Source of the DNA: Acidimicrobiia bacterium
Lineage (GTDB): Bacteria > Actinomycetota > Acidimicrobiia > Spongiisociales > Spongiisociaceae
NCBI GenBank assembly: GCA_965200835.1
Contig: OZ241390.1
Coordinates: 2,327,616-2,391,615, forward strand
DNA: 64,000 nt
Direction of reading: 5' to 3'
The notes under the pieces were generated by a model, which ran no database searches, was not told the DNA's origin, and saw only the letters and a list, made by a program, of their open reading frames with translations. Position numbers and translations under genes: made by a program. Below are positions 15,716 to 51,826 of the stretch, piece after piece. The first letter of the stretch is position 1. Each line of letters starts with the position of its first letter.

Positions 15716-15725
15716 CCGGTTTCCA

Positions 15726-16916
15726 GTGACCCTCCCGGCCCGGACCGGTCACCTCACCCGCCGTCGCTTTCTTGTCATGAGCGGGATGGCCGCAGCAGGT
15801 GGAGTGTTATTAAGCACCGGGAGTAGGGCTTGGGGAACTCCCGGGGACATTCCCGGCAGTGTTTCCATCGATTCCCGTCATGCCATAGTGCCACGGATAG
15901 TTTGGGGGTCAGATTTACCTCCTACCGGGCAATTGCAGCAAGAAGCACCAGGTGATGTGCGGTTCCTGCTTGTTCATCACAGCGCGTCCCCGAATGACTA
16001 CTCGCCAGAACAGTCGATCCGTTACCTCAGGAGCTTCTACAACTATCACACTTCTGCGGAGAAGGGTTGGCCCGACATCGCATACAACTTTCTGGTCGAT
16101 CGTTATGGGCAGATCTTCGAAGGTCGGGAGGGAAGTATCGGCTCACCTATCAAGGGGGATGCGACCGGGGGAAGTCAGGGATACGCGCTCCTGACATGTT
16201 TCATCGGTGACCATCGTGAAGTCGCTCCGACGCCCGATGCGCAGTCGGCCATGGTTGCGCTACTGGCCTGGTTGGCAGGTACGTACGGTATCGATCCCGG
16301 CCCGGGTGCGACCGCGGAGTTCGTGTCCCGCGGCTCGAACTTGCATCCCGAGGGGATGGAGGTAGTGACCTCTACTATCACCGGCCATAGGACTATGTCC
16401 AGAACGACCTGTCCCGGGGATGAGGCGTTCGAGTTGGTGGAACACAGCTTCCCGGTGGAGGTCGCCGCAGCTTTGTCGATGCATGGACCGGAGGTACCTT
16501 CACCGGTTGAGGTGCCTACTACCTCCAACGAAGCACCAGCTCCAGCAACGATCTCGACCACGACAACCCCGCCTACCACCTCAGCGCCGGCTGCGGCTAT
16601 CACCCCCGAGACAACTTCAGATATCCACCCTGACACTACGTCGCTAGCGGTCGTATCAACGGCTCCGACCGTTCCTTCAACAGTCGGAGCAAGGGAAGAT
16701 ACGGAACCTGCAGCTGTTCCGACCACGACCGAGGTGATCGATCAGGAGACGAGGGCTGTAGCTCCTCCACCTACCGCTCCGGCCACGGACTCAGCCGGCG
16801 GGACGTCCCGCCAGCTGATGGGTCCTATCCTGGCCGGTATCGGAGGGGCGATGCTGGCGGCAGCATACGGGCTCCGCCGCTGGCTTGGTGTCGCCACTGA
16901 CAACACGTCCAAGTGA
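15726..16916 (+). CDS. Tat-exported PGRP-type N-acetylmuramoyl-L-alanine amidase with Pro/Thr stalk and C-terminal membrane anchor
   Basis: TRRRFL Tat motif; VHHSA, WPDIAYNFLVDRYGQIFEGR, GHR...TTCPG Zn ligands; hydrophobic tail followed by RR. Confidence 0.88.
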   Translation: MTLPARTGHLTRRRFLVMSGMAAAGGVLLSTGSRAWGTPGDIPGSVSIDSRHAIVPRIVWGSDLPPTGQLQQEAPGDVRFLLVHHSASPNDYSPEQSIRYLRSFYNYHTSAEKGWPDIAYNFLVDRYGQIFEGREGSIGSPIKGDATGGSQGYALLTCFIGDHREVAPTPDAQSAMVALLAWLAGTYGIDPGPGATAEFVSRGSNLHPEGMEVVTSTITGHRTMSRTTCPGDEAFELVEHSFPVEVAAALSMHGPEVPSPVEVPTTSNEAPAPATISTTTTPPTTSAPAAAITPETTSDIHPDTTSLAVVSTAPTVPSTVGAREDTEPAAVPTTTEVIDQETRAVAPPPTAPATDSAGGTSRQLMGPILAGIGGAMLAAAYGLRRWLGVATDNTSK

Positions 16917-16996
16917 TGGAAATACATCGAGTTCCCCATAGTTAGCACATCGGTCGAGTCGGTCCGGGTCGGTTCGATCAGGACCGGACTTGTAGG

Positions 16997-18265
16997 TCAG
17001 TGCCGGGCGGGTGCAAATACCAGGCCGCGGTCGGCAGGGTCTTGTGATAGGCGGCGGCCGTAGCACTTTGAGGCGGTTTTCATGTCGAGGTCGGTCCAGC
17101 AGGCGTTTTGGGCTTGGGCAGCGGTGGTGAATGGTCCGGCGAATACGACCCAGTATCCGGGGTTGAGGCTCTGATAGTCGTCACTGAGCAAGATTCCTAA
17201 TGGTATCCCGTGTTTGCGCGACAACTCATCCAGGATTCGTTCAGCCTCCGAGAAGGAGGTCGTAGACACTATTACGGAAATGAACGTACTATCTAGAGCT
17301 GAATTATTCTCAGCTTGGGTGGTGGTTGTCTTTGTACCTCGGTTTACATATTCAGTTAGAAGAGCAAAGTCGATGGCCGAGTAAGCTTCGGTTAGTTCAC
17401 CCATACCACCGCTTGTGGAAATGGCCCGCATTGTTATACCAATCACCCGTCCCTGACCGTTGACCATTGCTCCTCCGCTCTGTCCTCCTGTCCCAGCCGC
17501 ATCTGTCCTCAATACCGTTAGACCTGTTGCCCACTCTTCATATACACGAGAAAGAATACCTTGAGTGATTGAAGCTTGAGGATACGGATCGGATTCAGCA
17601 GGATAGCCTATTAGGAATACAGTACTACCGGGCGGACTATCTTCACCGTCTTTGAGCTTTAGAGGGGGTGCTAGAGCATCGACTGGTCCCAGTACTGCCA
17701 AGTCCGCCCAAGGTTCCCACCCGACCACGGGGACGTCTCGAAACTCTGTACCGTCGGGAAAGAACACTCTGAGGACGGTCGTGAACGGCTGGACTACATG
17801 GTAGTTGGTGACTATGTAACCTCCTTCGGTCAGGACACCACTACCGGACCGGGTTCCATCAGCGTTGATCAAGAAGGCGATAGACGGAGCGACTCGCCGG
17901 TAGATCTCTTCGGCCGTTGTTGGATTACTGAGAGATGTATTGGAGATTGTTGTGGTAACGTCGCTCGACGTTACCAGTGACGTGGCTGCCGTCGACACGG
18001 TTGAAGTAACCAATTCCGAGGTCAGTATCGTGCCCACAGATGTAGTGGCAACATCGGTGGTTGATGAGGCTTCTGTCGTCGATGTTGACAGCGCTATAGT
18101 AGCGGTTGTAAAGGGAGGAACAATTGTTGTGGTGTCTTCGGATGTGTAAGTGGAGTACGAGTCACCGCAGGCCGTGAGGAGCGCGATCAGGAAGAGTGTT
18201 ACACTGATCGTTATAGGTCTGTAAAGGAACGTCGCTCTTCTCCTGTCACTCCGACTGTATGGCAT
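16997..18265 (-). CDS. Lipoprotein trypsin-like (S1C) serine protease with Ser/Thr linker and C-terminal SPOR-like domain
   Basis: LTAC lipobox; GSG, TNYHVV, DLAVL, GQSGG catalytic motifs; C-terminal SDDYQSLNPGYWVVFAGPF; start uncertain. Confidence 0.82.
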   Translation of the reverse strand: MPYSRSDRRRATFLYRPITISVTLFLIALLTACGDSYSTYTSEDTTTIVPPFTTATIALSTSTTEASSTTDVATTSVGTILTSELVTSTVSTAATSLVTSSDVTTTISNTSLSNPTTAEEIYRRVAPSIAFLINADGTRSGSGVLTEGGYIVTNYHVVQPFTTVLRVFFPDGTEFRDVPVVGWEPWADLAVLGPVDALAPPLKLKDGEDSPPGSTVFLIGYPAESDPYPQASITQGILSRVYEEWATGLTVLRTDAAGTGGQSGGAMVNGQGRVIGITMRAISTSGGMGELTEAYSAIDFALLTEYVNRGTKTTTTQAENNSALDSTFISVIVSTTSFSEAERILDELSRKHGIPLGILLSDDYQSLNPGYWVVFAGPFTTAAQAQNACWTDLDMKTASKCYGRRLSQDPADRGLVFAPARH

Positions 18266-18266
18266 C

Positions 18267-18419
18267 CGAGCATTAGCATAACCCTACGTCCCAGCGGACT
18301 CCAGTCTGATGTACCTCTTGCCCCTTTGTGCACCTCAACCTTGATATCGTATTCCGGTCGAGTAGCCAACCATTCCGTGATACACGGCTTATTGTCTGTA
18401 GGGTACGAGCATTAGCGTA
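18267..18419. repeat. Direct repeat CGAGCATTAGC(A/G)TA flanking a ~125-bp segment with short inverted ends (MITE-like)
   Basis: DR at 18267-18280 and 18406-18419; ACCCTAC at 18281 and GTAGGGT at 18398-18404. Confidence 0.45.
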
Positions 18420-18422
18420 GGT

Positions 18423-18700
18423 TTACAGCCACTCCGTGACTGGGGTGGAGCGAAACCACTCGAGGTCGATTCCGCCGCCCCCGACTAGCAGGGTTCGTGT
18501 AGGTCGGTGGGCCGCGGCGAAGGCTGCTATCCCGGGTAGGGTGGTTGGTGCCCGGCCGCTCTTGACCTCGATTGCCACTACCCGAGTGCCCGCAGTGCCC
18601 AATAGATCGAGATAGTGGGCGATGGCCGTAGTATTGCCTGCGTCCTGAAGCTGGCCGAGCATCTTGGTGTAGAAGAGTATCTGGCCCGAGTAGGCATGGC
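18423..18700 (-). pseudogene. C-terminal fragment of AAA+ ATPase/DUF4143 protein
   Basis: AYSGQILFYTKMLGQLQDAGNTTAIAHYLDLL and VVAIEVKSGR...LLVGGGGI motifs, with an apparent internal deletion between them. Confidence 0.75.
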
Positions 18701-18744
18701 TGCGATCCTGCGGAACACCAGAACTGTCCGCCTACTCGGTAGTT

Positions 18745-19230
18745 ATGATTGCCGACCGCGATGCCCGACTGAAGAACCCCGGAGGCACGAAGGGCGGCGC
18801 GACCTGGTTCGAGAGCTTGCGTTGGTTCTCAGACCAAGACGGCTATCGGCCGAGCGGCCACGTCCGGGTAGGTTTCTCACCCCGGAACCTTCAGCATGGG
18901 TTCAAGCGTCTTCGCGCCGATGGTCTTGTCACTTGGGAACACCGGAGCACCAGTCCCGACCAACCCGGTCGCCGCTTCCGATCCGGTCGCTGCAACATCT
19001 ACAAGAATCGCTTCAACCGGGCACGACGAGGCGAAGGCGGGCCAAGGTCAAAACCTCAACCCCGGGGGTGGCCGAGAGGCCACCAGACCGGGGTTTCCAA
19101 CAGGAAAAATAACGAAGACCTAAGACGCTGTCAACACACCGACCTTCACAGCGTCCGCGCTCGAACGCCTCATCTCGGCGGAACGCTTCGCATCCTTCGT
19201 CAAGGGACACCAGGACCCTCAGACCGCTAG
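18745..19230 (+). pseudogene. Possible winged-HTH replication-initiator-like remnant
   Basis: SPRNLQHGFKRLRADGLVTWEHR...GRRFRSGRCNIY resembles the HTH_36-type wHTH; the rest is uninformative. Confidence 0.3.
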
Positions 19231-19859
19231 CTGTCGCCCTCTACATCTGGAACGCTCGGGTGGCTGGAAGCTTCGGGGAGTTGTTTCACCATGTTGAAGT
19301 ACTGGTCCGCAAAGCGATGCACGACCAACTTACTGCTCTGCACGCGCAGGTTTCCGATCGTCCATCCCACAAAGCCTGGTTCGATGAACCTAGCTGGGCC
19401 AAGCATCACTGGTTCAGCGATCGTGCTCGATAACAGATAGAGAAGGCGAAACAGCGAGATAAGAAGGTACGAAGTCACCTGGAACCAGGAATGGTTGTTG
19501 CTAACCTTACGTTCGGATTCTGGCGCTACCTCGCCAGCGTCCGATATGAGCAAAGTTTCTGGATCCCCGCCCTTGACAAAGCCTTCACTGCACCGGGCAG
19601 GCATGCCGGGGAGAGTCGCCAAGCGGTTGAACACCGACTAGCACCGCTCCTCAGACTCAGGAACCGCATTTCACACTGCGAACCTATTATCCGCCCCATC
19701 CGATACAGAGTCCGAGGCCACCCCGAGGTTACCAGAACTCTCGACCAGCTATACGGCGACGCAGTCGAACTAGTGACATTCGTTTCCCCGACTGCTGGTC
19801 TCTGGCTTGAACACGAAACCCGCCATCTTCGTCACCTCCTTGATACCAGACCTAGCTGA
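19130..19859 (+). pseudogene. Abi-like (AbiD/F, HEPN-type) protein, disrupted
   Basis: LERLISAERF, frameshift near 19225, ALYIWNARVAGSF..LFHHVEV.VR, in-frame TAA at 19431, LTFGFW, LRNRISHCEPI (R-x4-H). Confidence 0.75.
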
Positions 19860-20042
19860 TTGTCATCCGACGGCAGCTACAAGTGACGAGACCCATCCGC
19901 CGACCTGCTGGCTGATTTGAGCGGCTATGAGGTTGGGCTGCTTATGTAGGCTCTAACAGCTCTTCGGACGGTTCCGTGGCGCGTGTGATGGGCGTCGAGA
20001 AGGGACAGCCTTATCCTTGGGGCCTACGATAGAACGACTCGC

Positions 20043-21485
20043 CTAGTCGAGGTCTTCCAGATGGGTACCGCTCAACCTGTCGCCCAGCAGGACGAGTCGG
20101 CGTCTCGTCACTTCCAAGCTGGTGGCGAGAACATAACCGCCATCCTCGGGTTTTCTGATGGCACCGATCAACGGATTGGAGAGGGCAGCGAGTAGAGACT
20201 CGATCTGTTCCTCCGTGTCTGCCAAGGTCTCATCATCGAGGCGTATCCACAGATCCCGCGCCGTCATGGGGTCGAAACGAGGGCAGTCGTTCGCTAGTGT
20301 CTCAACAATGTGAGCAGCAGTTGCCATCAAGTCGGCTGTTTGTTCATTCGCCGTTTCGATGTCAAGTGTATCTACCTCACCGCCCCCCTCGAAGAGGTAC
20401 CGATAGACGTCCAGACCTACAGGCGCACGGGCATGTTGACGGACGATTCCAGCGAGCTGTCCGGCGGACAGCACTCTGACCCCATGCTCCTCAGCACGCT
20501 GGAAAAGGCGGCTACCCGTCGGGTTCGGACCTATCAGCAACGAGTGATGTGCTTCGTGCTTGTCACGATGCTCTTTGAGGGTTGGCCAGTCAACTTGGGA
20601 GTCGCGAAGGGACCCAGCTGCCGTTGTCTTGGCATCTACTGTAACTCGGTAAGAATGATCCCGTCCCATCTGGGCGTCCAGTAGTACATCCGTCTTACCA
20701 GGTCCGCCAAGCAGAATCGCCCGGAACCCTAAGAACTTGAAGGCATCTCGGACTGCTCGTTCAAATCGTCTATGATCGGTTGTATCGGTCGCTGAGTCGA
20801 TGATCTCATTGGCTAGGTCCGTAGGATCCTCGGACTCGACAAGTCCAACTTGGTCCTCGGCAGTACCGGTATCCGTTGATGTGCCCATCTTGTCATCCGA
20901 CTCTCGGCGCTGGGCATGTGGCCTGGAGTCCGGATCGAATAGCTCCATCCGTGAGGCGAGTTCCAACCCCTTCGAAGTGGTTTTCCAGGTGCCCTCGGGG
21001 TCAGAATCCAGGAGTCCTGCCGAGTGCAGCCAACCTCGCCTATGGGTCAGCGGGCCAGTCGTTTCCCAGTTCATATTGTATCGATCTCTCGCAACAGCTA
21101 ATAGCTGTTCCTTATCACGACCGCCTGAGAGTTCGGTGAGCATTTCGCCTACGAAACGGCACTTCGAATGGATCAGTGCCACTATGAGTCTGTCATCTCT
21201 CTCTTCTAGCCAACGGCGGGTCCAGCTGGTCAAGCTATAACTACCGTCTTCTATATCTATGAGCCCAGCACGTCTCAGAAAGCCGATAATGATTCGTGTG
21301 CCATAGGGGTTGTAGTTGAACTCAGGTGAGAACCACTCAATCAACTCACTTGGAGTAGGACGAGTTTCGTCTACTCTAGCGGCAATCTTTGACAGGCTTC
21401 GGAAATGGTTCGTATAGCCGCCGGGAAGGGCATCGACCGACTTCGCTCGCTGGTCCCACGGAAGAACCTTGGGAAGTGCAGCCAT
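20043..21485 (-). CDS. Restriction-endonuclease-like protein: two winged-helix domains plus Mrr-type PD-(D/E)XK domain
   Basis: FERAVRDAFKFLGF...GGPGKTDVLL...VDAKTT catalytic pattern; FLRRAGLID and WLHSAGLLD wHTH motifs; GGAGGAGAG RBS before ATG 21485. Confidence 0.75.
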   Translation of the reverse strand: MAALPKVLPWDQRAKSVDALPGGYTNHFRSLSKIAARVDETRPTPSELIEWFSPEFNYNPYGTRIIIGFLRRAGLIDIEDGSYSLTSWTRRWLEERDDRLIVALIHSKCRFVGEMLTELSGGRDKEQLLAVARDRYNMNWETTGPLTHRRGWLHSAGLLDSDPEGTWKTTSKGLELASRMELFDPDSRPHAQRRESDDKMGTSTDTGTAEDQVGLVESEDPTDLANEIIDSATDTTDHRRFERAVRDAFKFLGFRAILLGGPGKTDVLLDAQMGRDHSYRVTVDAKTTAAGSLRDSQVDWPTLKEHRDKHEAHHSLLIGPNPTGSRLFQRAEEHGVRVLSAGQLAGIVRQHARAPVGLDVYRYLFEGGGEVDTLDIETANEQTADLMATAAHIVETLANDCPRFDPMTARDLWIRLDDETLADTEEQIESLLAALSNPLIGAIRKPEDGGYVLATSLEVTRRRLVLLGDRLSGTHLEDLD

Positions 21486-21564
21486 CTCTCCTCCGGATTG
21501 TGAACCACTGTCAAGCATATCTAAGGGTAACCCAGATCCGTTCGGTACGTGGCACAGTGGGTTA

Positions 21565-22130
21565 CAGAGTGCCGTACGTAACTTGCCCACTCTTCCGGGC
21601 GCTCGATGAGCGGGACCGCGCCTGGATATGCGCCAAAGTAGATGTATTGGTCCAGTGACCAGCCGAAGCCGTCGCGCATCTCGGAGAAACTCCAGTGGGG
21701 CATCAGCGTGGTCTGGAACCTACCTGCCAGACTTTCGGAGAAGCCCCGCTGGATTAGAAGGGGGGCGGAGCCCATGAGGACCACCTGGATGTTCCAGCGC
21801 AGACGGGTGTCCTCGTCCCACAGGTACTTGACAATGCCTGACCACTAGCGAACCTTCTGTACCTCATCGATCACCAGCAGCGCAGACCCGTGCTCGGCTT
21901 GCCGGGCTAGGAGGCGAGCTACTTCCCATTGCTGCTCGACCCAAGTGAGGCTACGCAGGCAGGGGTGGTCAGCGTCGGCATAGTGGGCCGGCAGGTCGAT
22001 CTTCCGGAGGACTTGCAGGACCATCGTGGTCTTGCCAACCTGCCTGGGTCCGGTAACCACTTGGATGAACCGGCGCGGTTGACGCAACCGGCGGACCAGT
22101 TCGGCGACTTGGGGACGGGTATGGGCCTCA
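21565..22130 (-). pseudogene. N-terminal fragment of AAA+ ATPase/DUF4143 protein
   Basis: GPRQVGKTT Walker A, LVIDEVQK Walker B, in-frame TAG at 21845, GSAPLL..G.SESLAGRF, FGAYPG; no start codon; breaks after WASYVRHS. Confidence 0.8.
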
Positions 22131-30350: not shown

Positions 30351-30380
30351 ACCTAACAGGCTTGCTCACAGCTGTTAGGT
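30351..30380. repeat. Inverted repeat ACCTAACAG...CTGTTAGGT right after the thiolase stop
   Basis: Perfect 9-bp arms with a 12-nt loop; terminator or transposon-end scar. Confidence 0.5.
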
Positions 30381-30444
30381 CGCCAGCCGGCTTCAAGACA
30401 CCGGCTCCTCCGTGGCCCGATACCTGTCTTAGCCGGTCGGTACC

Positions 30445-31451
30445 ATGACGATCATGGCTGGGGTAGCTACAACGGAACGATCTGATCGGCCTGCCCGGAT
30501 ATTCGTGGAGAACTGGTCACCCGACTACGGGGCCCCGCTCGAGGTGTCGGCCGAATCGGAGCCCGTCTACGAGACGGACCCGGCAGTCGAGACCCGGGAC
30601 TGGAGCCCCATCCGCGGCAGCTCGCGCACGACCCCTCCGGAAGTTGTATTCGTGGATGGCGTACGCCGGGTCGAGGCCAGGATCACCATCGACGACCCTC
30701 TGGATGGTCCGGTACCTGGATTGATGGCCGCCATCGGAGTGGGCGCTGTCCGGTGGGACCGCTCCATACCCCGCTCCACCTTCTCGGATCTGTCGGTCGA
30801 ACGCCTGGTGGTCATGGCAAGAGGTTACGAGTCGGGCATCGACCGGATCGGTGCGCTACCGGTGACCTCCGAGTCCGTACCTGATGATGATCCTGCCGAG
30901 TTGGTGGCCCAGGTACAGCGCCGGATGCGTGCAGCCGAGCAGTTGCTGGCATCCCGGCTAGCGACGCCCGGACGCCTAGTCATTGCGGACGGTCGGAGCC
31001 ACGAGCTAGGTCCGCAGCGGATCGTGGGTCTGGTAAAGACGCACCGGGCCATGTACCTGGAGGATCGACTACGGTCAATGGTCGGTCACCTCAGGGCGGG
31101 GGAGAGGACTCCCATCTTCTCGATCGACACTGGGTTCCTGCCTCGTTACTCCTGGTATCTGCGAATAGCCGAGATACCACGGAGTCACTCCTGGACGGGC
31201 ATCGTGCGCTGCGAGGTGGCCGGCGCGGTGGGGATCGATGCAGCGGCCGAAATGGCAGGCTGGACCACGCAGCTCCTACCGCCCCTGCCGTCCGAGCAGC
31301 ATATCGACCCTCGCGCACCCAGAATCTGGTGCCTATCTCCGCCCTGGAAAGGGAACTCCGGCGCTGCATGGGCGATCGGAACCTGGCACATCGGGCCCTG
31401 TTGAGAGCCGCAGCCCGCGCCCAGTCGGTCGGCACTCGGCCGGGCGGCTAG
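30445..31451 (+). CDS. nurA: NurA-like 5'-3' nuclease (frameshift near 31320)
   Basis: FVDGVRR, IADG, GLVKTH..YL, GERTPIF, SWYLR, GIVRCE; C-terminal DPRAP(Q)NLVPISALERELRR restored by adding one C; that frame ends at TAG 31449-31451. Confidence 0.8.
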
Positions 31452-31453
31452 AT

Positions 31454-33187
31454 ATGCCGGTCGGGGAGCCGGTCGGGAGGATCATCGCCTCCGAGCACGC
31501 CACCACTCAAGAGTTCGGGGTGGTTCTCGACGACCGAAGCTACCTCCAGCTCGACGATCTGGTGATGGTCGAGACGGAGGTGCCGGGCGCGGGGACGGTG
31601 AGCACCTATGGCGTGGTAACCGAGTCCAAGGGCATTTACGAGGGTGCCTCCTTCGAGTCCGACACCTTCCGGATTGCTCGCGAGGGCATATTGCCGGCTG
31701 CCAAGGTGCGGTCGGCTGAGGTGGCAGTGACCCGAGTGGATCCCGAGATCTGGGTGGCACCCGACCCGGGCCAGGAAGTTTTCCGGGCGGCAGGATCCCG
31801 GCGTGACAAGGCGCTGTACAAGGACGAGATGAACCGGGCGTTGCAGGTGGGCCTTGGTAGGGATGGGGAGCCGGTGTTCGCCGACGTCGACTTCTTCGAC
31901 GGCCGTAAAGGCGGGCACATGTCGATCTCGGGGATCTCGGGAGTGGCTACCAAGACCTCCTATGCCCTGTTCTTCATCCGTATGCTCACCGCCCATCCTC
32001 AGATTCTCGGGGAAGGGGCCGCCAACCTACGGGTGCTGATCTTCAACGTCAAGGGTGAGGACCTGTTGTGGCTCGACAAACCCAACAGGTACTTGACCCC
32101 GGAGGCGGTGGAGGAGTGGCACCGATTGGGCGTTTCGCCCGCCCCCTTCCCGTCGGTCCACTTCTGGGCGCCGCCCCGTCGCTTCTCGGGGGATGTCTCG
32201 CTCCCCCACACGGGTGGTCGCCTCGAGGGGGTGACCGCCTTCTCCTGGACGCCGCGCGAGTTCATCGACGAGGGCTTGCTGGCCTTCCTGTTCACGGATG
32301 CGCTGGACTCACGTAACCAGAATTCCTTCGTCGAGGAGCGGGTGCGCTCCCAGTTACGAAGATGGGCGGTGGACGTGGCGGGAGAGCCGGGCGCGGTGGT
32401 GTTGCGCTCGCCTCCGAAGGGGGGCCACAAGGGGCCCCACGAGGTGCGACCAAATCCTGGCGAACGGGTGATCCGCGACCTTCGTGACCTGGTCGACGAG
32501 CTGGACGAGTACCTGGACCCTCCGGATGGGAGCGAGCCCGACATCGCCTGGTCCGGCCGTACCCAGGCGGGAACCATCGCGGCCTTCATGCGGCGGTTGC
32601 ACGCGGCCTCCCACCGTCTCGGGCACCTCATCCGGGCCGGAGAAAGCCAGCGGGTGGACCGGCGCGCCGCCCAGATAACGGTTATCTCCATCCAGACCCT
32701 TCATGACCTGGGCCAGCGGTTCGTGGTGGGGGCCATGCTGGAGGAGACCTTCCGGGAGAAGGAACGATCCGGCCGCCGCCTACCGCTGTCGGTCATCCTG
32801 CTGGACGAACTCAACAAGTATGCGCCCCGGGAGGGTCGCAGCCCCCTCAAGGAGATGCTGGTGGACATCGCCCAGCGGGGACGGTCGCTGGGTGTGCTGC
32901 TGGTCGGCGCACAGCAGACGGCTTCCCGGGTAGCGCCCGAGGTCTTGGAGAACGCTGCTTTGCGGGTGGCCGGACGCTTAGACGCAGCCGAGGCAGAACG
33001 TTCCGAGTACGGGTGGATGCTGCCATCGACCAGAGCCAGGGCACGTCTGCTGAAGCCGGGAACGATGGTGCTGTCCCAGCCGGCTATTCCGGTGCCGCTG
33101 GTCCTCACCTTTCCCTTCCCGCCGTGGGCAACCCGCCAGGAGGAGGTGGAGGTGGAAGCCGAAGAAGACCCCTTCGCTGACCTCTGA
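31454..33187 (+). CDS. herA: HerA-like ATPase/helicase (HAS barrel plus FtsK/HerA domain)
   Basis: HMSISGISGVATKTSY variant Walker A, IFNVKGEDL, LDELNKYAP, QRGRSLGVLLVGAQQ. Confidence 0.88.
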   Translation: MPVGEPVGRIIASEHATTQEFGVVLDDRSYLQLDDLVMVETEVPGAGTVSTYGVVTESKGIYEGASFESDTFRIAREGILPAAKVRSAEVAVTRVDPEIWVAPDPGQEVFRAAGSRRDKALYKDEMNRALQVGLGRDGEPVFADVDFFDGRKGGHMSISGISGVATKTSYALFFIRMLTAHPQILGEGAANLRVLIFNVKGEDLLWLDKPNRYLTPEAVEEWHRLGVSPAPFPSVHFWAPPRRFSGDVSLPHTGGRLEGVTAFSWTPREFIDEGLLAFLFTDALDSRNQNSFVEERVRSQLRRWAVDVAGEPGAVVLRSPPKGGHKGPHEVRPNPGERVIRDLRDLVDELDEYLDPPDGSEPDIAWSGRTQAGTIAAFMRRLHAASHRLGHLIRAGESQRVDRRAAQITVISIQTLHDLGQRFVVGAMLEETFREKERSGRRLPLSVILLDELNKYAPREGRSPLKEMLVDIAQRGRSLGVLLVGAQQTASRVAPEVLENAALRVAGRLDAAEAERSEYGWMLPSTRARARLLKPGTMVLSQPAIPVPLVLTFPFPPWATRQEEVEVEAEEDPFADL

Positions 33188-34366
33188 TGCGGATACTCCA
33201 CACGTCCGACTGGCACATCGGCAAGAAGCTCGGGCGCTTCGACCGCATGGACGAGCACCGCAAAGCCATCGACGAGGTAGTCGACATCGCCGAGCGGGAA
33301 CGGGTGGATCTGGTGATCCACAGCGGGGATGTGTTCGAGCGGCCCATACCGCCCATGCCGGCTCTGGAACTGGGCCTGGACGGCCTGGTGCGGTTGACGG
33401 CTGGCGGCACCGGACCGGTGGTGGCCATTGCCGGCAATCATGACTCGCCGCTCCTGTTCGACACGCTGGCCAGGTTTCTGGTTAACCGAAACGTCCATCT
33501 CGTGGGAGAGGTGAAGTCCCCGGACGAAGGAGCAGTACTGGACCTGGCTACTCGCGCCGGGCGGGCGGTGGTGTCCTGCTTTCCGTTCTTGCGTGAGGGT
33601 CGCACGTTCAACGTTTGGCATCCTCCCGAGGAGCACTACAAGCGGTACGCAGACAAGTTGCGCGCCATCAGTGCGGCCTATGCCCGGGCGGCCGAGAGCC
33701 GCGCCGCAGGCGAGGCGGTTACCGTCCTAGTGGCCGACTACCTAGTGGGAGGGGTCAAGGTGCATGGGCACGGTGCTCCGCGCGGTGAACGTGAACTGCA
33801 TATGGGCCAGGTGTACGCGGCCGATTCCCAGGCCATACCGGTGGGTCCCCAGTACGTGGCTATGGGACACATCCACGCGCCTCAGCGGATACCTGGAGCT
33901 CCGGTACCTGCCGAGTACTCCGGTTCACTGTTGCAGCTCGATTTTGGTGAGGCAGAGGAGGCCAAGCGAGTCGTGCTGGTCGATGTCGAGCCGAACCTGC
34001 CGGCCCGGGTTCGCAAGATACCGGTTGGAGGTGGCCGGCCATTGCTCCGTCCGTCTGGCACGTGGGAGGAGATTGCGGCCACCCCCGGGGTCGATGATTC
34101 ATATCTGGATCTGACGGTTGTCACCGAGGGACCCGATCCTGGTCTCGCCGACCGGGCGTCGGGATGGGTATCCCTTCCTGGTCAAGGTAAAGGCCGAGTA
34201 TCCGAAGGAGGAAACGGAACGGCGGTCGCGGCAAGGGCGAAGCATCGTGGACCTCTATCACGACTACTACCGCACCAGCGAGGGCGTAGACCCACCTGAT
34301 GACCTGATCGGCGCCTTTCGGGAGCTGGTCGAGAAGTTCGAAGAGTCGGCACGTGCGCCCGCTTGA
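33187..34366 (+). CDS. sbcD: SbcD/Mre11 nuclease (frameshift at ~34159)
   Basis: HTSDWHIGK, SGDVFE, AGNHDS, MGHIH, YSGSLLQLDFGE; removing one T at 34159 joins a C-terminal domain that overlaps the sbcC start. Confidence 0.88.
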
Positions 34367-37300
34367 GCTCCGGCTGAGGAACTTTCGCTCGTTCTATGGT
34401 GACGGCCACACCTTCACCTTCCGCGGCCGGCGACTGATCGGGGTAGTCGGACCCATCGGGTCGGGGAAGAGCACCATCCTGGACGCTATAGCGTTCGCTC
34501 TGTACGGCAAGACACCTCGTATCGCCCGCTCCACCCGATCGCTCATCCACCAGCGTGCTCAGCACGCCGCGGTAGCCCTGCGCTTCGAAGTCGAGGGGGA
34601 AGTATGGGAAGCGGCCCGGCTCCTGCGCCGGACCGGCGCGAGCCAGCATGCCCTCTACCGGTTGCCCGCCGATACCGAAGAACCGGCACCGGACAAGAAG
34701 TTCTCTTTTGTACGGGAGGTCAACCACCAAATCGAAGAGCTGCTCGGTCTCGACTTCGATGGGTTCGGCCGGTCGGTGCTGCTGGCCCAGGGTCAGTTTG
34801 CCCAGTTTCTGTCCGCTCCACCGGCTGCGCGTGACAAGGTCCTCAAAGGCGTGTTCGGACACCAGCGGGTGGGCGCGATCCGTGACCTGGCCAAGCAGGC
34901 AGTTGGACGTAGCAGGCACGAGACCGAGAAGCTGGACATCCGTATTGAACATGTGGAGGCAGCGAGGACCCGCCTGGTACAGCACCGGGAGGACCTGGCC
35001 GAGGCCACCGCTCGCCTGGGTCAGTTGGAGGAAGTACTTCCCAGGTTCGAAGCCCTCGCTGCCCGGATCGACCAGGCGGAGAAGGTCCGAGACCTGGCGG
35101 ATCGGCGGCTGGCCGAGCTGAGGGAACGTTCCGCCGAGTTACCCGATCCGGTATGGAGCGAGAAGGCACTGGCGATGGTTGAGCAAGCCGGCCTGAAGGT
35201 GTCCTCGGCAGAGCAGAAGTTGCAGGTCGTCTCCGATCGGCTGGTCGAAGCAGAAGAGCACCTGGAGTCGGAGGAGTTCGAGCAGGAACTCGAGCGTGTG
35301 GAAGAGTCGACCGAGCTACTCAGCCAGCTCGAGGCTGTCCGAGTGGGGATCGAAGCACGGCTGGATGATCTGAGTCGGCGGGCACGGGAGATTCCTGATC
35401 GGTTGGAGGGGGAGCGGGTGGTATTGCAGGCCGAGCGCGGCTCGGCTCGGCGGGTCGAAGCCGATCGGGAGTGGTCGACGGCCTCGACCGTTCTCGAACG
35501 TGCGGAACGAGTCCTGCTATCCGATGACTTCCTAGAGCGCAGGCGTCGGGCCGAGGAGGCGAGCACTCTGATGGTCAGGGTCCATGCTGCCGACTTGTCG
35601 CTGCAGGATGCGGTGTTGGAGTCTCGCCAGGCGACGGACAATCTGGCGGAGGATGAAGCTGCCGAGACGGAGGCCCGCTCTGCCTTGGATCGGGCCGGCT
35701 CGAGCCGTGAGCGAGTCGAGACCGCGGCGCGGCAGGCCACATCCCGTCTCGCGGTTGCTCGGGACCGTTTGCAGGAAGCCCTCCACGCCGACATGGCCGG
35801 GTCGCTGCGTGAACGGTTGGCCAGCGGCGACGCATGCCCGGTGTGCGAGCAACCCGTACATCGGGTCCCGCCAGCGGCCGGAGGTGATACGGACGCGGCC
35901 CGCCGGCGGGTGGAACGAGCACGCTCGGAGCGAGATACCACCGAGAAGCTGGTGCGATCGGCGGTCGGGACCGAACAGGCTGCCCGGGCTCGCCTGGACG
36001 CTTCCGCGGAGCGGCGAGCGGCCTCGATCCTCAGCCTCGTCGAGCTGCGCGGCAAGGAGGAGCAACGACACGCCCAACTGGCGAAGTATCAGGACCGGCT
36101 CAGGGGCTTGCTGGGTGATGGCCCGCCCGAGGTTCGGTTGGATGAAGAACGGGCTGCTCTGGACGGACTCACCGCGGCCGCGGAGGAGGCCCGCGTTGCG
36201 CGGGACGAAGCCAGAGCGGCTCTCGACGAGGCTATGGAAGAGCAACGCCGTGTTCAGGAAGCAGTGTCGGACTTGCGCACTCGAATAGGAACGCTTGGCG
36301 CGATGCTGCATGCCGACTTTCCGGCTCCGGAGAGCGGTCCCGGGGCGGTCCGGCAGGGGCTCGCCCACCTCGACAACGAGTGGCGCCGTACGATCGCCAA
36401 CCTGACGGACGACCTCCGCAGGGAACAGCAGAAGATCGAAGCTGCCGCACTACAACGGACGAAGGCCCAAGCCCGCGTGGATGCCTTCCGCCAAGCGGCC
36501 AGCGATGCTCGGACAGCCCGGGATCAGGCTCGCGACTCTCTGGATAAGGCCGTCACGCTGGAGAAACAGGCTCGGAGAAAGCTGTCGGACCTTCTTGCCC
36601 GCATCGGGTCCCTCGGTGTCGTACTCCATAGCAACTTCCGGATACCCCGGGACGATCCCGACGCTCTGCGCGCTGCTCTGGCTTCACTGCACGAAGGATG
36701 GCGCCATGAGACAGGGGAGCTCGAGGCAACTGTTGAACGTAGCCACTCCGAGCGTGGGAAGGCTACGGCGGGCCTGCAGGAGTTGCGGGACGAGTATCGA
36801 ATCGATGGATCCATCGATTCTGCCCTGGCGGAACTAAGGGCGAAGCATGATCACATCGCCGCCGAGGTCGATCGACACGAGAAGTTAGTGGCCGGCCTCG
36901 ATGGGCTGCGGGAGGAGCGCAGGAAGAGACAGGATGAAGTCCGCCTCAACCAGCGTCTAGTTCGCGACCTCACCGATGCCCGCTTCATCCGATTCCTGCT
37001 CGACGAAGAACGTGCCGACCTCTCTGAGCTGGGTTCCGAGCACTTCGAGCGACTGTCCTCGGGGAGATACCGCTTTACTGGTGACGGGCAATTCCATGTG
37101 GTGGATCTCAACTCGGCCGACGCTATCCGCCGTGCCGATAGCCTGTCGGGGGGCGAGACGTTCCTGGCGTCACTTTCCCTGGCGCTGGCCCTAGCCGAAA
37201 TGGTCGGCCGCGGGGGAGGGCGTCTCGATGCCTTCTTCCTGGACGAAGGCATCGGAACCCTCGATCCTGAACATCTCGATCTGGCGATGGCAGGCATCGA

Positions 37301-37445
37301 GTCCTTGGTCTCGCAACGGCATCAGCGGCTAGTGGTGGTCGTGTCCCACGTTCCCGAGCTCCGGGAGCGCATCGAGGATCTGATCGAGCTGGACAAGGCG
37401 GCCCTGACGGGTGATTCGGTGGTGGTAGCCGGAGCTATGCCATAG
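34353..37445 (+). CDS. sbcC: SbcC/Rad50 SMC ATPase
   Basis: GPIGSGKST, LLAQGQF, CPVC zinc hook, LSGGETF, FLDEGIGTLD, VVSH. Confidence 0.93.
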   Translation: MRPLELRLRNFRSFYGDGHTFTFRGRRLIGVVGPIGSGKSTILDAIAFALYGKTPRIARSTRSLIHQRAQHAAVALRFEVEGEVWEAARLLRRTGASQHALYRLPADTEEPAPDKKFSFVREVNHQIEELLGLDFDGFGRSVLLAQGQFAQFLSAPPAARDKVLKGVFGHQRVGAIRDLAKQAVGRSRHETEKLDIRIEHVEAARTRLVQHREDLAEATARLGQLEEVLPRFEALAARIDQAEKVRDLADRRLAELRERSAELPDPVWSEKALAMVEQAGLKVSSAEQKLQVVSDRLVEAEEHLESEEFEQELERVEESTELLSQLEAVRVGIEARLDDLSRRAREIPDRLEGERVVLQAERGSARRVEADREWSTASTVLERAERVLLSDDFLERRRRAEEASTLMVRVHAADLSLQDAVLESRQATDNLAEDEAAETEARSALDRAGSSRERVETAARQATSRLAVARDRLQEALHADMAGSLRERLASGDACPVCEQPVHRVPPAAGGDTDAARRRVERARSERDTTEKLVRSAVGTEQAARARLDASAERRAASILSLVELRGKEEQRHAQLAKYQDRLRGLLGDGPPEVRLDEERAALDGLTAAAEEARVARDEARAALDEAMEEQRRVQEAVSDLRTRIGTLGAMLHADFPAPESGPGAVRQGLAHLDNEWRRTIANLTDDLRREQQKIEAAALQRTKAQARVDAFRQAASDARTARDQARDSLDKAVTLEKQARRKLSDLLARIGSLGVVLHSNFRIPRDDPDALRAALASLHEGWRHETGELEATVERSHSERGKATAGLQELRDEYRIDGSIDSALAELRAKHDHIAAEVDRHEKLVAGLDGLREERRKRQDEVRLNQRLVRDLTDARFIRFLLDEERADLSELGSEHFERLSSGRYRFTGDGQFHVVDLNSADAIRRADSLSGGETFLASLSLALALAEMVGRGGGRLDAFFLDEGIGTLDPEHLDLAMAGIESLVSQRHQRLVVVVSHVPELRERIEDLIELDKAALTGDSVVVAGAMP

Positions 37446-48425: not shown

Positions 48426-48733
48426 CGTCCGAATACCGGCATGTCGAGCGAAGGTGAAGGGCGGCTTGGGAATTCGGCGGCCAACTCCAGCACGGCGGCC
48501 AGCTCGGTACCCGGGTCGAGCCGTTCATCGCCCCGGATCCGTGGACTTAGCTCCCAGTCGAGGGTAAACCCGGCGGCCCTAACGATCCGGTCCAGGGTGT
48601 CACAGGTAGGGATCTTGGTTCCGGCCTCATAGGCCGCGATAGTGGAGTGGGAGGTACCTGCTCGAGTTGCGAGCGCCCTCAGCGTGAGACCAGCTCTGGC
48701 ACGAGCCATTCGGATCACTTCGCCAGCGTTCAC
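48422..48733 (-). CDS. XRE-family HTH protein (antitoxin/regulator)
   Basis: IRMARARAGLTLRALATRAGTSHSTIAAYEAG...P. Confidence 0.88.
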   Translation of the reverse strand: MNAGEVIRMARARAGLTLRALATRAGTSHSTIAAYEAGTKIPTCDTLDRIVRAAGFTLDWELSPRIRGDERLDPGTELAAVLELAAEFPSRPSPSLDMPVFGR

Positions 48734-48746
48734 TTAGGGACCATCC

Positions 48747-48764
48747 GGTATCCGATCAGATACC
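48747..48764. promoter_or_regulatory. Near-perfect palindrome upstream of the HTH/nucleotidyltransferase operon
   Basis: GGTATC(C)GATC(A)GATACC, 14 bp from the start codon. Confidence 0.6.
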
Positions 48765-48877
48765 ACAATAACCCATGCTTGGGACTGTCCCGTCGACTCG
48801 ACCTTTGCCGTATCGATCGGCATGAGCCGCCGGTAGAGTCCGTGTTTGTTGCATATGGCCAGGAGGCGCAAAGACCG

Positions 48878-51826
48878 ATGCGGCGGGTGATTCTGCTGGT
48901 AGCCGCGGTGGGGCTGTGGTTGGCCAATCCGGGTGGTCTATTGGCCGGAGATACACCTGCGCCGACTGGGATTCGGGTGGTGTCCGTTGGTGACGGAACG
49001 GTGACGGTGGCCTGGGAGGGTGTACCCGAAGCGACCCTGTACAGGGTGTACTACCGGCCGGGTGCGGTAGAGCCGGGTAGTGAACCGGAGGACGATTGGT
49101 GGTGGGGTTCGCCTCAGTTCGATTCCGATAGCCGTGAGGGCACCGTGCCCAATCTGACGAATGGTGTCTGGTATGAGCTGCGGGTTGCGGCCGGGGAGTT
49201 CTGGTCGGAGGAGTCCGTGCTGGCTCGGCCGGGCACTGACTCTGATAATGCCCGTCTCCCGGGCGTACCCGCCGATTTGAGGGTGGTCGAGGAGCTGGAA
49301 GGGTCGGTGACGGTTGCTTGGGATCCGCCTGAGGGTGGGGCTGCGGGCTATGAAGTGTGGCATAAGCCTGAAGGTTTCTACGGTCAGGATACGCCGTCGT
49401 GGGTTATGTCCGGGAGTGTGGATGGTGACGTTGGTTCGTATACGATCAGCGGGCTGGTTGACTTTCGGCGTTATCAGGTGATTGTGGCGGCGATTAATGA
49501 CACAGGTAGGGGCCTGTTTACCCCACCGGTGTGGCCGACAGCCGGTGGTGCGCTAGCTGGAGAGATGTCTGCGCCGACGGGGGTTAGGTTGGTGGCCGTT
49601 GGTGAGGGAACGGTGACAGTGGCCTGGGAGGGTGTACCCGAAGCGACCCCGTATAAGGTGGTTTACCGGCCGGTTGCGGTAGTGCCGGGTAGTGAACCGG
49701 CGGGCGATGGGTGGTGGGGTTCGCCGTTGTTCGACTCGGAGAGCCGTGAGGGCACCGTGCCCAATCTGACGAATGGTGTCTGGTATGAGCTGCGGGTTGC
49801 GGCTGGGGAGTTCTGGTCGGAGGAGTCCGTGCTGGCTCGGCCGGGTCCGGACTCCGATAGTGCCCGCATTCCAGGTGTCCCAGCCGATTTGAGGGTGGTG
49901 GGGGAGCTGATCGGGCAGGTTACGGTTGCTTGGGATCCGCCTGAGGGTGGGGCTGCGGGCTATGAAGTGTGGTACCGGCCGGTAGGTGTTTCTGGCGAGG
50001 ATCCGCCGTCGTGGGTTATGTCCGGGAGTGTGGATGGTGATGTTGGTTCGTATACGATCAGCGGCCTGGTTGACTTTCAACGTTATCAGGTGATTGTGGC
50101 GGCGGTTAATGACACCAGTCGGGGGCCGTTTACCCAACCGGTGTGGCCGGCAGCGAACGGTGCCGATCTTGATCCTCTTGGTCTAATCGCCAATTATCGG
50201 CACGCGACCGCGTATACCACCGGGTCTGACCTGTGGGAAGTCTGGGCGTGTGACGTTCCCGACGGCCACGAACATATCGACATCGACGGGATATCCGCCC
50301 GTCTGAATCGGGCACTACCCCCATACTTCCGATGGTTGTCCGGTGGGTTGTACCAGCCGGACTTCATAGCGGGTGGCACCGTTCGCGTGAACCAGCGCGG
50401 AACGGGGAAGACGGGAGAATATGGCTGCGCCGATGCGGTGGCTGAACTGACCGGCGGTGATGCACATGGAGCGCTAATCATTCTCGATAAGAGCGGGGGA
50501 GTTGCTTTTGGGGGTACCGGCGGATTCGGGTATGTGTACCCCGACGACGGTACGGTAAGGTACGAACAGTCGAAGTTCCCCGCCAACGACAGGACAGTTC
50601 ACGCACCAGCACCCTACGTACGGTCGAGTGTTGGATTTGAGGCCATAGCCCACGAGGTCGGACATGCGTTGGGTTGGCCGCACTCGTATGGCGGTAACCG
50701 GCAACTACCGGCTTGGGTACAGGATCTGGAGTTGGATTCTGACGAATACGACAACCCAATGGATCTCATGTCCCAAGTGCCGGGCGTGGAATACTCGGGA
50801 CCGGATGGGATCAGCGCTGGAACCATCGCGATAAACCGATACGCCGCGGGATGGCTCCCTCTAGAGACGGTGAAGGTTCACAGCGGTCAACCCACCAGTT
50901 ACCTACTCAGTCCGCCCGGCGTGACAGGCACCCAGATGGTGGTGCTTCCGTCCGGCCAGCCGGGCCGGTTCGTCACCTTGGGAGCGAGGCTGAGAGAGGG
51001 CTACGACCGGGGGCTGCCAGTTGAAGGGGTCGAGGTGTACCGGGTGGATCAGCGCGCTATCGCCTGTGATGCCGAGAGGGAAGGTTTGTCGTGCACGACA
51101 ACGGAGCGCCGCACCAGTCAAATCCCACCACCTTCGAGCGACGACGGTCGGTCAGTACGCCAGTGGACAGATCATGTTTACGGTCCGGGCGACACGTTGA
51201 CTGTCGACGGGTATCGGGTAGACGTTGTCGAACGGGTCGGTGACCGCTTCCAATTGTGGGTTGGCCCACCTCATCGGGGACAGTTCGCCGACGACGACGG
51301 GAACGTCCACGAACCGAACATCGACCGGCTGGCTGACCTGTCGGTGGCGGTTCCTTGCGACTCGGACTTGAGGCATTACTGCCCCGATCGGCCGATCACT
51401 CGCGGTGAAATGGCCATGTTCCTGGTGCGGGCAGTCGACGGTGGCGATCCGCCCCCTTCCCGACGGTCCCGTTTCTCGGATGTGCCGGCAAACGTCGGGT
51501 TGTCAGCGTATGTGGAACGTCTGGCCGAACTGGGGATCACTGCCGGATATCCGGACGGGACCTTCCGGCCGGACTCGCCGGTCAACCGAGGCCAGATGGC
51601 TGTGTTCCTTACGAGGGCGTTTCCCGGTCTGGCGAGCATCGACACACCGTCGGGGGTGTTCATCGATGTGCCCGTAGACGACCCTTATGCGGTGGCTGTT
51701 GAGACGATCAGGGCCGCGCAGATCACCGCCGGTTGCGCCGCCGGTCCCGACCGGTTCTGTCCCGAAAGGCCGGTACGTAGGGATCAGATGGCAACGTTCC
51801 TGGCCAAGGCGTTGGGGCAGAGTTAG
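48878..51826 (+). CDS. Secreted surface protein: 4 fibronectin type III domains, zincin metallopeptidase (HEVGH), C-terminal SLH domains
   Basis: Signal peptide; VTVAW...Y.V.Y...L..G..Y motifs; AHEVGHALGWPHSY, YDNPMDLMS; ITRGEMA, VNRGQMA, VRRDQMA SLH motifs. Confidence 0.88.
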   Translation: MRRVILLVAAVGLWLANPGGLLAGDTPAPTGIRVVSVGDGTVTVAWEGVPEATLYRVYYRPGAVEPGSEPEDDWWWGSPQFDSDSREGTVPNLTNGVWYELRVAAGEFWSEESVLARPGTDSDNARLPGVPADLRVVEELEGSVTVAWDPPEGGAAGYEVWHKPEGFYGQDTPSWVMSGSVDGDVGSYTISGLVDFRRYQVIVAAINDTGRGLFTPPVWPTAGGALAGEMSAPTGVRLVAVGEGTVTVAWEGVPEATPYKVVYRPVAVVPGSEPAGDGWWGSPLFDSESREGTVPNLTNGVWYELRVAAGEFWSEESVLARPGPDSDSARIPGVPADLRVVGELIGQVTVAWDPPEGGAAGYEVWYRPVGVSGEDPPSWVMSGSVDGDVGSYTISGLVDFQRYQVIVAAVNDTSRGPFTQPVWPAANGADLDPLGLIANYRHATAYTTGSDLWEVWACDVPDGHEHIDIDGISARLNRALPPYFRWLSGGLYQPDFIAGGTVRVNQRGTGKTGEYGCADAVAELTGGDAHGALIILDKSGGVAFGGTGGFGYVYPDDGTVRYEQSKFPANDRTVHAPAPYVRSSVGFEAIAHEVGHALGWPHSYGGNRQLPAWVQDLELDSDEYDNPMDLMSQVPGVEYSGPDGISAGTIAINRYAAGWLPLETVKVHSGQPTSYLLSPPGVTGTQMVVLPSGQPGRFVTLGARLREGYDRGLPVEGVEVYRVDQRAIACDAEREGLSCTTTERRTSQIPPPSSDDGRSVRQWTDHVYGPGDTLTVDGYRVDVVERVGDRFQLWVGPPHRGQFADDDGNVHEPNIDRLADLSVAVPCDSDLRHYCPDRPITRGEMAMFLVRAVDGGDPPPSRRSRFSDVPANVGLSAYVERLAELGITAGYPDGTFRPDSPVNRGQMAVFLTRAFPGLASIDTPSGVFIDVPVDDPYAVAVETIRAAQITAGCAAGPDRFCPERPVRRDQMATFLAKALGQS
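48959..50150 (+). repeat. Intragenic tandem duplication, 612-bp period (two FN3 pairs)
   Basis: GCGCCGAC.GGG at 48959 and 49571; long identical tracts such as AGCCGTGAGGGCACCGTGCCCAATCTGACGAATGGTGTCTGGTATGAGCTGCGGGTTGCGGC. Confidence 0.95.

Follow-up and report, generated by a model that had tools for sequence, protein, structure and literature searches.

The window analysed here, a stretch of 64,000 nucleotides of contig OZ241390.1 from an Acidimicrobiia bacterium, contains four co-oriented genes, nurA, herA, sbcD, and sbcC, which span positions 30445-37445 of its forward strand according to the open reading frame (ORF) list and the searches made with its products. It is considered likely that they constitute a vertically inherited bacterial nurA-herA-sbcD-sbcC operon, which is most likely inactive or crippled and stands at an early stage of loss. 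An earlier, sequence-only reading had presented this operon as complete; however, nurA and sbcD are each frameshifted in the DNA, whereas relatives read both genes in one frame, and a loss of function is what these two frameshifts would most likely bring about. In the ORF list, the four frames are 30445-31404, 31238-33187, 33187-34299, and 34353-37445. The genes, as delimited by comparison with relatives, and the motif preceding them are as follows.

30425..30446, forward strand: promoter-like motif TGTCTTAG-N8-TACCAT, directly 5' of nurA (pattern match)
30445..31451, forward strand: nurA, gene of a bacterial-type NurA nuclease, frameshifted (PDB sequence search, structure model, DNA alignment)
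31454..33187, forward strand: herA, gene of a bacterial HerA hexameric ATPase/translocase, 577 aa, intact (match to PDB 7f6d_B)
33187..34366, forward strand: sbcD, gene of an Mre11-family nuclease, frameshifted (Pfam Metallophos, TIGR00619, DNA alignment)
34353..37445, forward strand: sbcC, gene of a Rad50-family ABC ATPase, 1030 aa, intact (TIGR00618, AAA_23, SMC_N)

Two frameshifts within the operon

The nurA frame that starts at 30445 (or 30454) is conserved up to 31320, runs out of frame after residue 292, and stops at 31404, and NurA of relatives aligns to the window in two frames, one to 31323 and another from 31308 on. Compared with relatives, one C is missing at 31319/31320, and the C-terminal 42 codons (31323-31448, followed by TAG at 31449-31451) are found in another frame. 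The DNA alignment of the window with four same-genus loci in which nurA comes first (type A) shows GCACC-CAG in the window, GCACCCCAG in three of the four relatives, and GCACCGCAG in the remaining one; over a longer span, the window reads GCACC-CAGAAT, three relatives GCACCCCAGAAC, and one GCACCGCAGAAC. The second lesion concerns sbcD, whose metallophosphatase and capping part can be read from 33187 to about 34158, after which the frame is lost and a stop follows at 34299. Again, the protein of relatives aligns in two frames (33187-34158 and 34160-34336), and one extra T is present near 34159, at a site that is no homopolymer, where the window reads GCGTCGGGA and relatives GCC-AGGGA or GCG-AGGGA (over a longer span, GGGCGTCGGGAT compared with GGGCC-AGGGAC or GGGCG-AGGGAT). 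The C-terminal part of about 68 residues lies in another frame, up to TGA at 34364-34366, and residues ~325-389 of relatives align only there. In all nine same-genus or same-family loci, nurA and sbcD are single-frame over their full length, and a sponge-associated member of the family (locus L096) has each of them in one frame.

The assumption that both frameshifts are sequencing or assembly errors, and that the living bacterium has an undamaged, working operon, has to be taken seriously. The genome looks like a metagenome-derived single contig, and the nurA site is a short run of C. All sampled words of 30445-34400 are contained in seven public runs from two studies, one of which is labelled as a sponge metagenome. 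The contigs of four runs (two studies), assembled separately, each span 30445-34400 (3956 bases) in one piece, with no other letters, no gaps, and word depths from 12.5 to 41.6. Because the contigs of the four runs agree over this region, the frameshifts are taken to lie in the DNA. Some observations weigh against this conclusion. The runs may be the genome's own source sample; three of them (X1, X5, and X6) give contigs of equal sizes and are thus not independent organisms or necessarily platforms; and contigs conceal minor alleles. Moreover, the nurA or sbcD frame is split in 10 of the 135 other loci, several of them from one metagenome-bin series, and therefore an assembly error is a real rival in general. 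In these ten loci (L108, L114, L118, L125, L127, L140, L141, L163, L013, and L067), the split extends over two or three frames, at times with more than one break per gene; the origin of several from a single bin series suggests that assembly indels, and not biology, are the cause there. On the other hand, the sbcD site lacks the homopolymer that the nurA site has in a short form, and two errors inside 2.1 kb, one in nurA and one in sbcD, would be an odd coincidence. Elsewhere, long genes of this genome have uninterrupted frames (1030, 1047, 1086, 1130, and 1174 aa), and other window genes are whole: 40 other window ORFs and four flanking ones give full-length domain matches with no split family, with the exception of an 80-aa AAA_14 piece at 21845-22087, likely a fragment. 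This gene-integrity evidence covers the 64-kb window plus a few long repair genes. Taken together, an error at both sites is judged unlikely, while retaining some weight, and true frameshifts are preferred.

Gene products, couplings, and the cost of the lesions

The gene identities proposed in the sequence-only reading, NurA, HerA, SbcD (Mre11), and SbcC (Rad50), were upheld by PDB, NCBIfam, and fold matches. Neither Pfam nor NCBIfam gave a NurA match for the first frame. However, a sequence search of PDB matched it to NurA of Deinococcus radiodurans (7f6d_H, E 3.6e-10) and to Thermotoga TM1739 (1zup, E 2.7e-4). The structure model of residues 4-292, built on a 60-sequence alignment (pLDDT 90.4, pTM 0.86), has the RNase H-like fold of NurA, the absence of which had been set beforehand as grounds for abandoning the identification; the best Foldseek match was 7f6d_G (1.7e-17, TM 0.72), followed by 1zup_A (8.4e-14) and Sulfolobus NurA 2ygk_A (3.4e-06), with endonuclease V and then Argonaute PIWI domains among further matches. 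The second frame, read from ATG 31454, matched D. radiodurans HerA (7f6d_B) over residues 5-566 with E 5e-117 and 394.7 bits, while in Pfam it gave no HerA family and a sub-threshold AAA match (0.009, 16.9 bits compared with a cut-off of 21.2). Annotation pipelines based on Pfam and NCBIfam would thus miss NurA and HerA altogether. The Walker A sequence SGISGVATKT, with GISGVATKT at residue 160, is present as had been noted, but it is not atypical: ISGxSGVATKT and the Walker B LDELN (LDELNKY at 450 in the window) are invariant in 15 of 15 aligned sequences, and the stretch isgisgvatktsyalf is identical in D. radiodurans HerA. The Walker A and B residues of the window protein align with K175/T176 and D487/E488 of the D. 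radiodurans protein as described in PMC9960219, in which K175 and T176 make contacts with nucleotide and Mg.

SbcD and SbcC fit bacterial models best. SbcD matched the calcineurin-like phosphoesterase domain PF00149 Metallophos (9.4e-15 over 1-232) and TIGR00619 sbcd (1.4e-42, 146.2 bits compared with a cut-off of 77.65). For SbcC, TIGR00618 sbcc ranked first (5.8e-65 over 1-1016) with 219.9 bits, under its cut-off of 478.5, and the Pfam families AAA_23 and SMC_N (5-1013) matched as well, covering N- and C-terminal parts of the ATPase head. The motifs of the protein comprise the Walker A sequence GPIGSGKST, a hook (CPVC, 495-498), and, at 931, the signature LSGGE with FFLDEG after it.

The tight coupling of the four genes, described previously, holds for their order and junctions. 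The stop of the nurA frame (TAG 31449-31451) is separated by 2 bases from the herA ATG at 31454, in the sequence TGATG (33185-33189) one A is common to the herA stop and the sbcD start, and sbcC, with its GTG start at 34353, overlaps the true sbcD frame (ending with TGA 34364-34366) by 14 nt. It does not hold for the genes as they are encoded, since the nurA-herA and sbcD-sbcC couplings sit in frames discontinuous with the nurA and sbcD starts, and both genes need to be read across their frameshifts. Gene adjacency with the 2-nt gap is the basis for a putative NurA-HerA 2:6 complex with mutual activation. No second copy of nurA, herA, sbcD, or sbcC was found in the genome.

In intact relatives, it is proposed that SbcCD would recognise and open blocked or hairpin DNA ends, that the HerA hexamer would then pump the duplex into the NurA dimer, and that NurA would cut the strands, giving a resected end for RecA loading. 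Both nuclease genes of this pathway are affected in the window. In NurA, residues D68 and G69 (motif I, FVDGVRR at 66), E162, D179 and G180 (motif II, IADGR at 177), K195, and R287 are invariant in the 60-sequence alignment and present in the window. Beyond the frame break lies the block QNLxPxxxLE, conserved in at least 90% among the 60 sequences; in the window, QNLVPISALE is encoded only in the other frame, past the 1-nt deletion at 31319/31320. The Glu of this block aligns with 1zup chain residue 292, corresponding to native Glu280 of TM1739 (offset 12). According to PMC3300031, Glu280 of TM1739 replaces His411 of Pyrococcus furiosus NurA, a ligand of the second Mn ion, the mutation of which abrogates nuclease activity, save for weak activity in the presence of HerA. 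Because the frameshift puts the conserved C-terminal block out of frame, the NurA encoded in the window is devoid of the fourth active-site residue (equivalent of His411 in P. furiosus and Glu280 in Thermotoga NurA), which is lost together with the last 42 codons.

As regards Mre11/SbcD proteins, a helix-loop-helix past the capping domain grips the SbcC coiled coil. The sbcD frameshift puts the last ~68 codons out of frame, which presumably encode this region holding on to SbcC.

The frameshifted genes could nevertheless give working products (a truncated NurA, a truncated or two-piece SbcD, or full-length proteins by ribosomal or transcriptional slippage), so that the system works. The intact state of herA and sbcC is in line with such a possibility, as is a TTG at 34118 that opens the C-terminal sbcD frame. 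Two further points speak against the operon being inactive. First, NurA retains five conserved catalytic or DNA-contact residues, namely the motif I Asp, the Glu, the motif II Asp, the Lys, and the Arg. The D. radiodurans residues D53, K201, and R309 (PDB numbering, offset 20) align with the motif I Asp, the GYVK Lys, and the RAPQNL Arg, and mutating any one of the three abolishes nuclease activity of that protein (PMC9960219), the last two positions thus being needed there and kept here. Some NurA activity could therefore conceivably persist. Second, in a relative-rate comparison of identities, the proteins of the operon show no clearly faster evolution than the thiolase next to them: when divergence between window and relatives is divided by divergence among relatives, the operon proteins give values of about 1.3 to 1.8, and thiolase gives about 1.5. 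Because there is no clear rate acceleration, either the lesions arose recently or some selection still acts on the remnants, and relaxation is recent or absent. However, neither shift was found in any relative, no slippery heptamer and no long homopolymer occurs at either site, and the NurA block that is lost is where the family is conserved most strongly and includes the equivalent of a residue needed for P. furiosus NurA activity. Working products are therefore regarded as improbable, and an operon that has recently been inactivated or crippled is the reading retained. The genome of 2.8 Mb is sponge-associated, and those of same-genus relatives have 3.3 to 5.1 Mb.

Distribution, regulation, and role of the operon

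The HerA query gave at least 8000 candidates, and the named ones listed come from Acidimicrobiia and Actinomycetota and bear the label 'ATP-binding protein' or 'HerA-like ATPase'. For the phylum, 201 evenly sampled genomes were considered, including six unpublished genomes, all with matches. A HerA match at E <=1e-20 was found in 60 of the 201. Of these matches, 47, counting that of this genome, are strong (E 2.6e-77 or better); the remaining 13 are weak, partial, and all in one family (f19), and probably represent a different HerA-like protein. Gene order was compared in 55 Actinomycetota loci: besides 16 near-relative loci, these were 39 of the 46 strong loci from other genomes, after omission of the six unpublished loci and of one situated at the edge of a contig. 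The genes are contiguous as nurA-herA-sbcD-sbcC in 24 of the 55 and as herA-sbcD-sbcC-nurA (type B) in 18 (42 for both orders together), which agrees with the expectation that the order should be conserved in relatives. Five loci have one of the two orders with an insertion of 1.8 to 3.3 kb, three have herA-sbcD-sbcC with nurA not seen (two at contig ends), two have sbcD 5.9 to 7 kb away, one is rearranged, and two have herA alone. The cluster is kept across whole families (e.g., 14/14 in family f9). Outside this set, nurA-herA-sbcD is contiguous in 60 of the best 80 named loci of at least 589 confirmed matches, including loci from Chloroflexota, Gemmatimonadota, Acidobacteriota, Ca. Sysuimicrobium, and a bin labelled Proteobacteria. 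Actinobacteria were listed among holders of NurA and HerA in a 2021 review (PMC8708640), and the four-gene block is an ordinary, widespread, known kind, partly in print. That bacterial nurA, herA, sbcD, and sbcC make up a stable block in two orders contradicts, on the other hand, a statement in a 2026 review (PMC13748450).

In a FastTree phylogeny of 130 HerA rows (local support values, midpoint-rooted, composed of sequences other than archaeal or Deinococcus ones and hence silent on ultimate origin), the nurA-last order forms a single 33-row clade (support 100) that lies among the nurA-first ones, and the window HerA groups with its own genus and a Ca. Spongiisociaceae bin (97). HerA proteins of relatives are 75-86% identical to that of the window. 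Upstream of the operon, thiolase, GSDH-family, and MFS transporter genes are found in all four same-genus type-A loci, and in one of the four the downstream neighbours NIPSNAP, gpsA, and ychF are also alike. As these flanking genes are conserved in the genus, the locus is taken to be a vertically kept chromosomal one. Within the genus, both orders occur: four genomes (L053-L056; G201, G204-G206) are nurA-first with HerA 82-86% identical to the window, and three (L062-L064; G203, G202, G207) are nurA-last only, with HerA 47-48% identical and in a separate clade. This split reflects either a replacement of one operon type by the other or a broad genus.

The epithet 'archaeal-style' in the sequence-only reading applies to the set of functions and not to the proteins, which belong to bacterial clades. 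A recent import of the operon from archaea would account for the four functions, which are the same as in the herA-mre11-rad50-nurA cluster of thermophilic archaea (as described in PMC4663267). However, archaeal HerA chains of PDB match the window HerA with E 0.17 to 0.92 (0.012 to 0.92 when defence HerA chains are included), compared with 5e-117 for the bacterial chain. The archaeal HerA model NF040819 helicase_HerA scores 11.3 bits against a cut-off of 970, and the archaeal Mre11 and Rad50 models also remain far under their cut-offs. The G+C content of 0.646-0.659 across 30-36 kb is similar to that of the flanks, and HerA branches with its genus and family. Such an import is thus hardly credible, and vertical inheritance of a bacterial operon is favoured.

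The control of the operon can be approached through the motif preceding it. Of 55 upstream regions, that of the window counted, 31 have the exact pattern TGTC-N12-TAnnnT within 160 nt 5' of the gene that opens the cluster, and its copies mostly end 6 to 8 nt ahead of the start codon. As background, 57 copies, the 31 included, were counted over the 1.83 Mb of strand that was scanned, or 0.006 per 200 nt. With a [TC]GTC variant and a spacing of 11-13, more upstream regions match; this variant was not used as evidence. In the window, the -10-like hexamer overlaps ATG 30445, and ATG 30454 comes 7 nt after it; because of this overlap, ATG 30454 is the likelier nurA start, and the message of the operon may be leaderless. 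Between the thiolase stop and the motif, an 8-bp inverted repeat (CCTAACAG ... CTGTTAGG, 30352-30389) was noticed, which could be a terminator-like hairpin or an operator. We infer that TGTC-N12-TAnnnT acts as a promoter.

Genome-wide, 106 copies of the pattern were counted, and 57 of these stand ahead of a coding-like ORF. Among 20 ORFs behind its TGTCAC form that were taken for a Pfam scan, eight are repair or recombination genes (recA, ssb, Lhr helicase, IMS-family Y-family polymerase, rmuC, HhH-GPD glycosylase, SMC_N ATPase, and SNF2 helicase), four are DNA-related, four are metabolic, and four matched either no family or nothing beyond a domain of unknown function; TGTC-N12-TAnnnT likewise precedes recC and a PD-(D/E)XK gene. 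The chromosomal sites include 2127935 (recA), 784418 (ssb), 2081038-2085432 (lhr), 2462904 (IMS polymerase), and 532703 (recC), and at repair genes genome-wide TGTCAC...-TAnnnT often stands 5-10 nt ahead of the start codon. Two adjacent genes with WYL domains, at 2760276 and 2761223, resemble pafBC. A non-palindromic motif, RecA-NDp, is known to be bound by PafBC (PMC6789036, PMC8223512), and sbcD is named among the PafBC-regulon genes of Mycobacterium smegmatis in PMC11348249. These data suggest a PafBC-like regulon with leaderless messages in this Acidimicrobiia genome, and the control of the operon looks like that of a LexA-independent, PafBC-type DNA-damage regulon, which would make it damage-induced. 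One point weighs against this proposal, namely that the upstream half of the window motif, TGTCTTAG, departs from the TGTCAC form of recA and of many relatives. Among the titles and abstracts listed for PafBC together with HerA or SbcD, no HerA/NurA-PafBC link was found; supplementary regulon lists may contain herA or nurA homologues.

The genome was checked for other resection systems, since the operon had been proposed to act independently of AdnAB and RecBCD. An AdnAB-like pair is present as adjacent genes of 1086 and 1047 aa, each with helicase matches and a PD-(D/E)XK domain (named by architecture only), and recC (1174 aa), recB (1130 aa), and recD (622 aa; 454 bits compared with a cut-off of 310) lie in a row with open frames. 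Because these genes are intact, the operon is not a substitute; it is a third end-processing system and no replacement, and its loss would be tolerated because the AdnAB-like and RecBCD genes remain.

The other role proposed earlier, the cleavage of foreign DNA, is not favoured. It would make the operon an anti-phage or anti-plasmid defence unit rather than a repair system, as might be expected from the statement, in the 2026 review, that bacterial NurA-HerA mainly degrades viral DNA (PMC13748450). The PADLOC models gave weak HerA matches (mad8 1e-06, defence HerA model 2.7e-06) and SbcC matches to LmuB (3.4e-28) and mad3 (1.5e-22). However, the latter are what any SMC-like ATPase would give, NurA had no PADLOC match, and no Sir2, DUF4297, or other effector partner was found. 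The PADLOC matches were accordingly judged to reflect generic ATPase likeness, being weak and devoid of an effector partner, in a locus with conserved flanks instead of a variable island. Neighbouring genes are conserved in the genus, whole families retain the cluster, as f9 does, and the promoter motif is common to recA, ssb, lhr, and recC. A defence unit is therefore quite improbable, and a damage-induced repair role would be favoured by the conserved neighbourhood and by a promoter motif that DNA-repair genes have in common.

With somewhat less than even confidence, it can be proposed for Actinomycetota as a whole that NurA-HerA-SbcCD belongs to a LexA-independent, PafBC-type regulon, transcribed from a promoter that is near-leaderless, as one induced machine beside AdnAB/RecBCD, and that the present genome is discarding it, nuclease genes first, while AdnAB and RecBCD stay intact. 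If this proposal is true, a third resection pathway has been caught while being discarded, which would offer a natural test of redundancy among bacterial resection systems.

Other features of the window and comparison with known systems

The recO gene noted in the window by the sequence-only reading was found at 2-868, about 30 kb from the operon, among housekeeping genes. At 21521-22087 on the reverse strand, two short ORFs of 87 and 80 aa were observed, the second covering positions 4-74 of the 129-position AAA_14 model; they are probably the remains of a broken ATPase gene. The region 15700-22000 has a G+C content of 0.57, compared with ~0.64. Its ORFs include those of an amidase and of a trypsin-like peptidase that matches SPOR weakly; several others, one of 515 aa, have no family. 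An rRNA operon had been suspected in this low-G+C part (16-22 kb), but no Rfam family matched at gathering thresholds. At 48647-51826 (forward strand), a 1059-aa protein with fibronectin type III repeats and an S-layer homology domain is encoded by a gene whose codon-position G+C contrast is under that of its neighbours. At 59218-62522 (forward strand), a gene for a 956-aa SNF2/DEAD helicase is followed by one for a small protein with a NOV_C domain, bordering a stretch of low G+C (0.56 at 62-64 kb); this region may be an acquired element.

Among known systems, the operon of archaeal thermophiles (Constantinesco et al., 2002, 2004, cited in PMC4663267 and PMC13748450) resembles the window by having the four functions in one transcription unit, and the type-B order of relatives, herA-sbcD-sbcC-nurA, mirrors the archaeal order herA-mre11-rad50-nurA. 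It differs in that its proteins belong to other clades, while the window has the nurA-first order, and in that the P. furiosus His411 position is Glu in NurA of the window type. The mycobacterial PafBC (RecA-NDp) regulon would have in common with the genome studied here a non-palindromic promoter motif directly 5' of the start codon, found at recA and repair genes, and a pair of genes with WYL domains; sbcD is named as a member in M. smegmatis (PMC11348249). Unlike it, the window has a motif that departs from TGTCAC, and a regulon is proposed here from sequence. In Oceanithermus profundus, herA is linked to sbcD and sbcC, located downstream (Blesa et al., 2017, PMC5448004). The linkage is treated in that paper as a recruitment in a single genus, whereas here it extends to the 42 contiguous Actinomycetota loci and to several phyla.

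The closest likeness in proteins is to NurA-HerA of D. radiodurans (PDB 7F6D, 7WRW, 7WRX; PMC9960219), with a full-length HerA match, an identical Walker A, and an alike Walker B region, and with the same NurA fold and common motif I Asp, Lys, and Arg. In contrast, the window nurA is frameshifted just past the Arg. Another difference concerns genetic organisation: for D. radiodurans, the connection between sbcCD and HerA-NurA 'remained to be uncovered', in the words of PMC4663267, whereas the window has the four genes in one operon. The Deinococcus question, whether SbcCD works together with HerA-NurA, is thus testable where the genes are co-transcribed.

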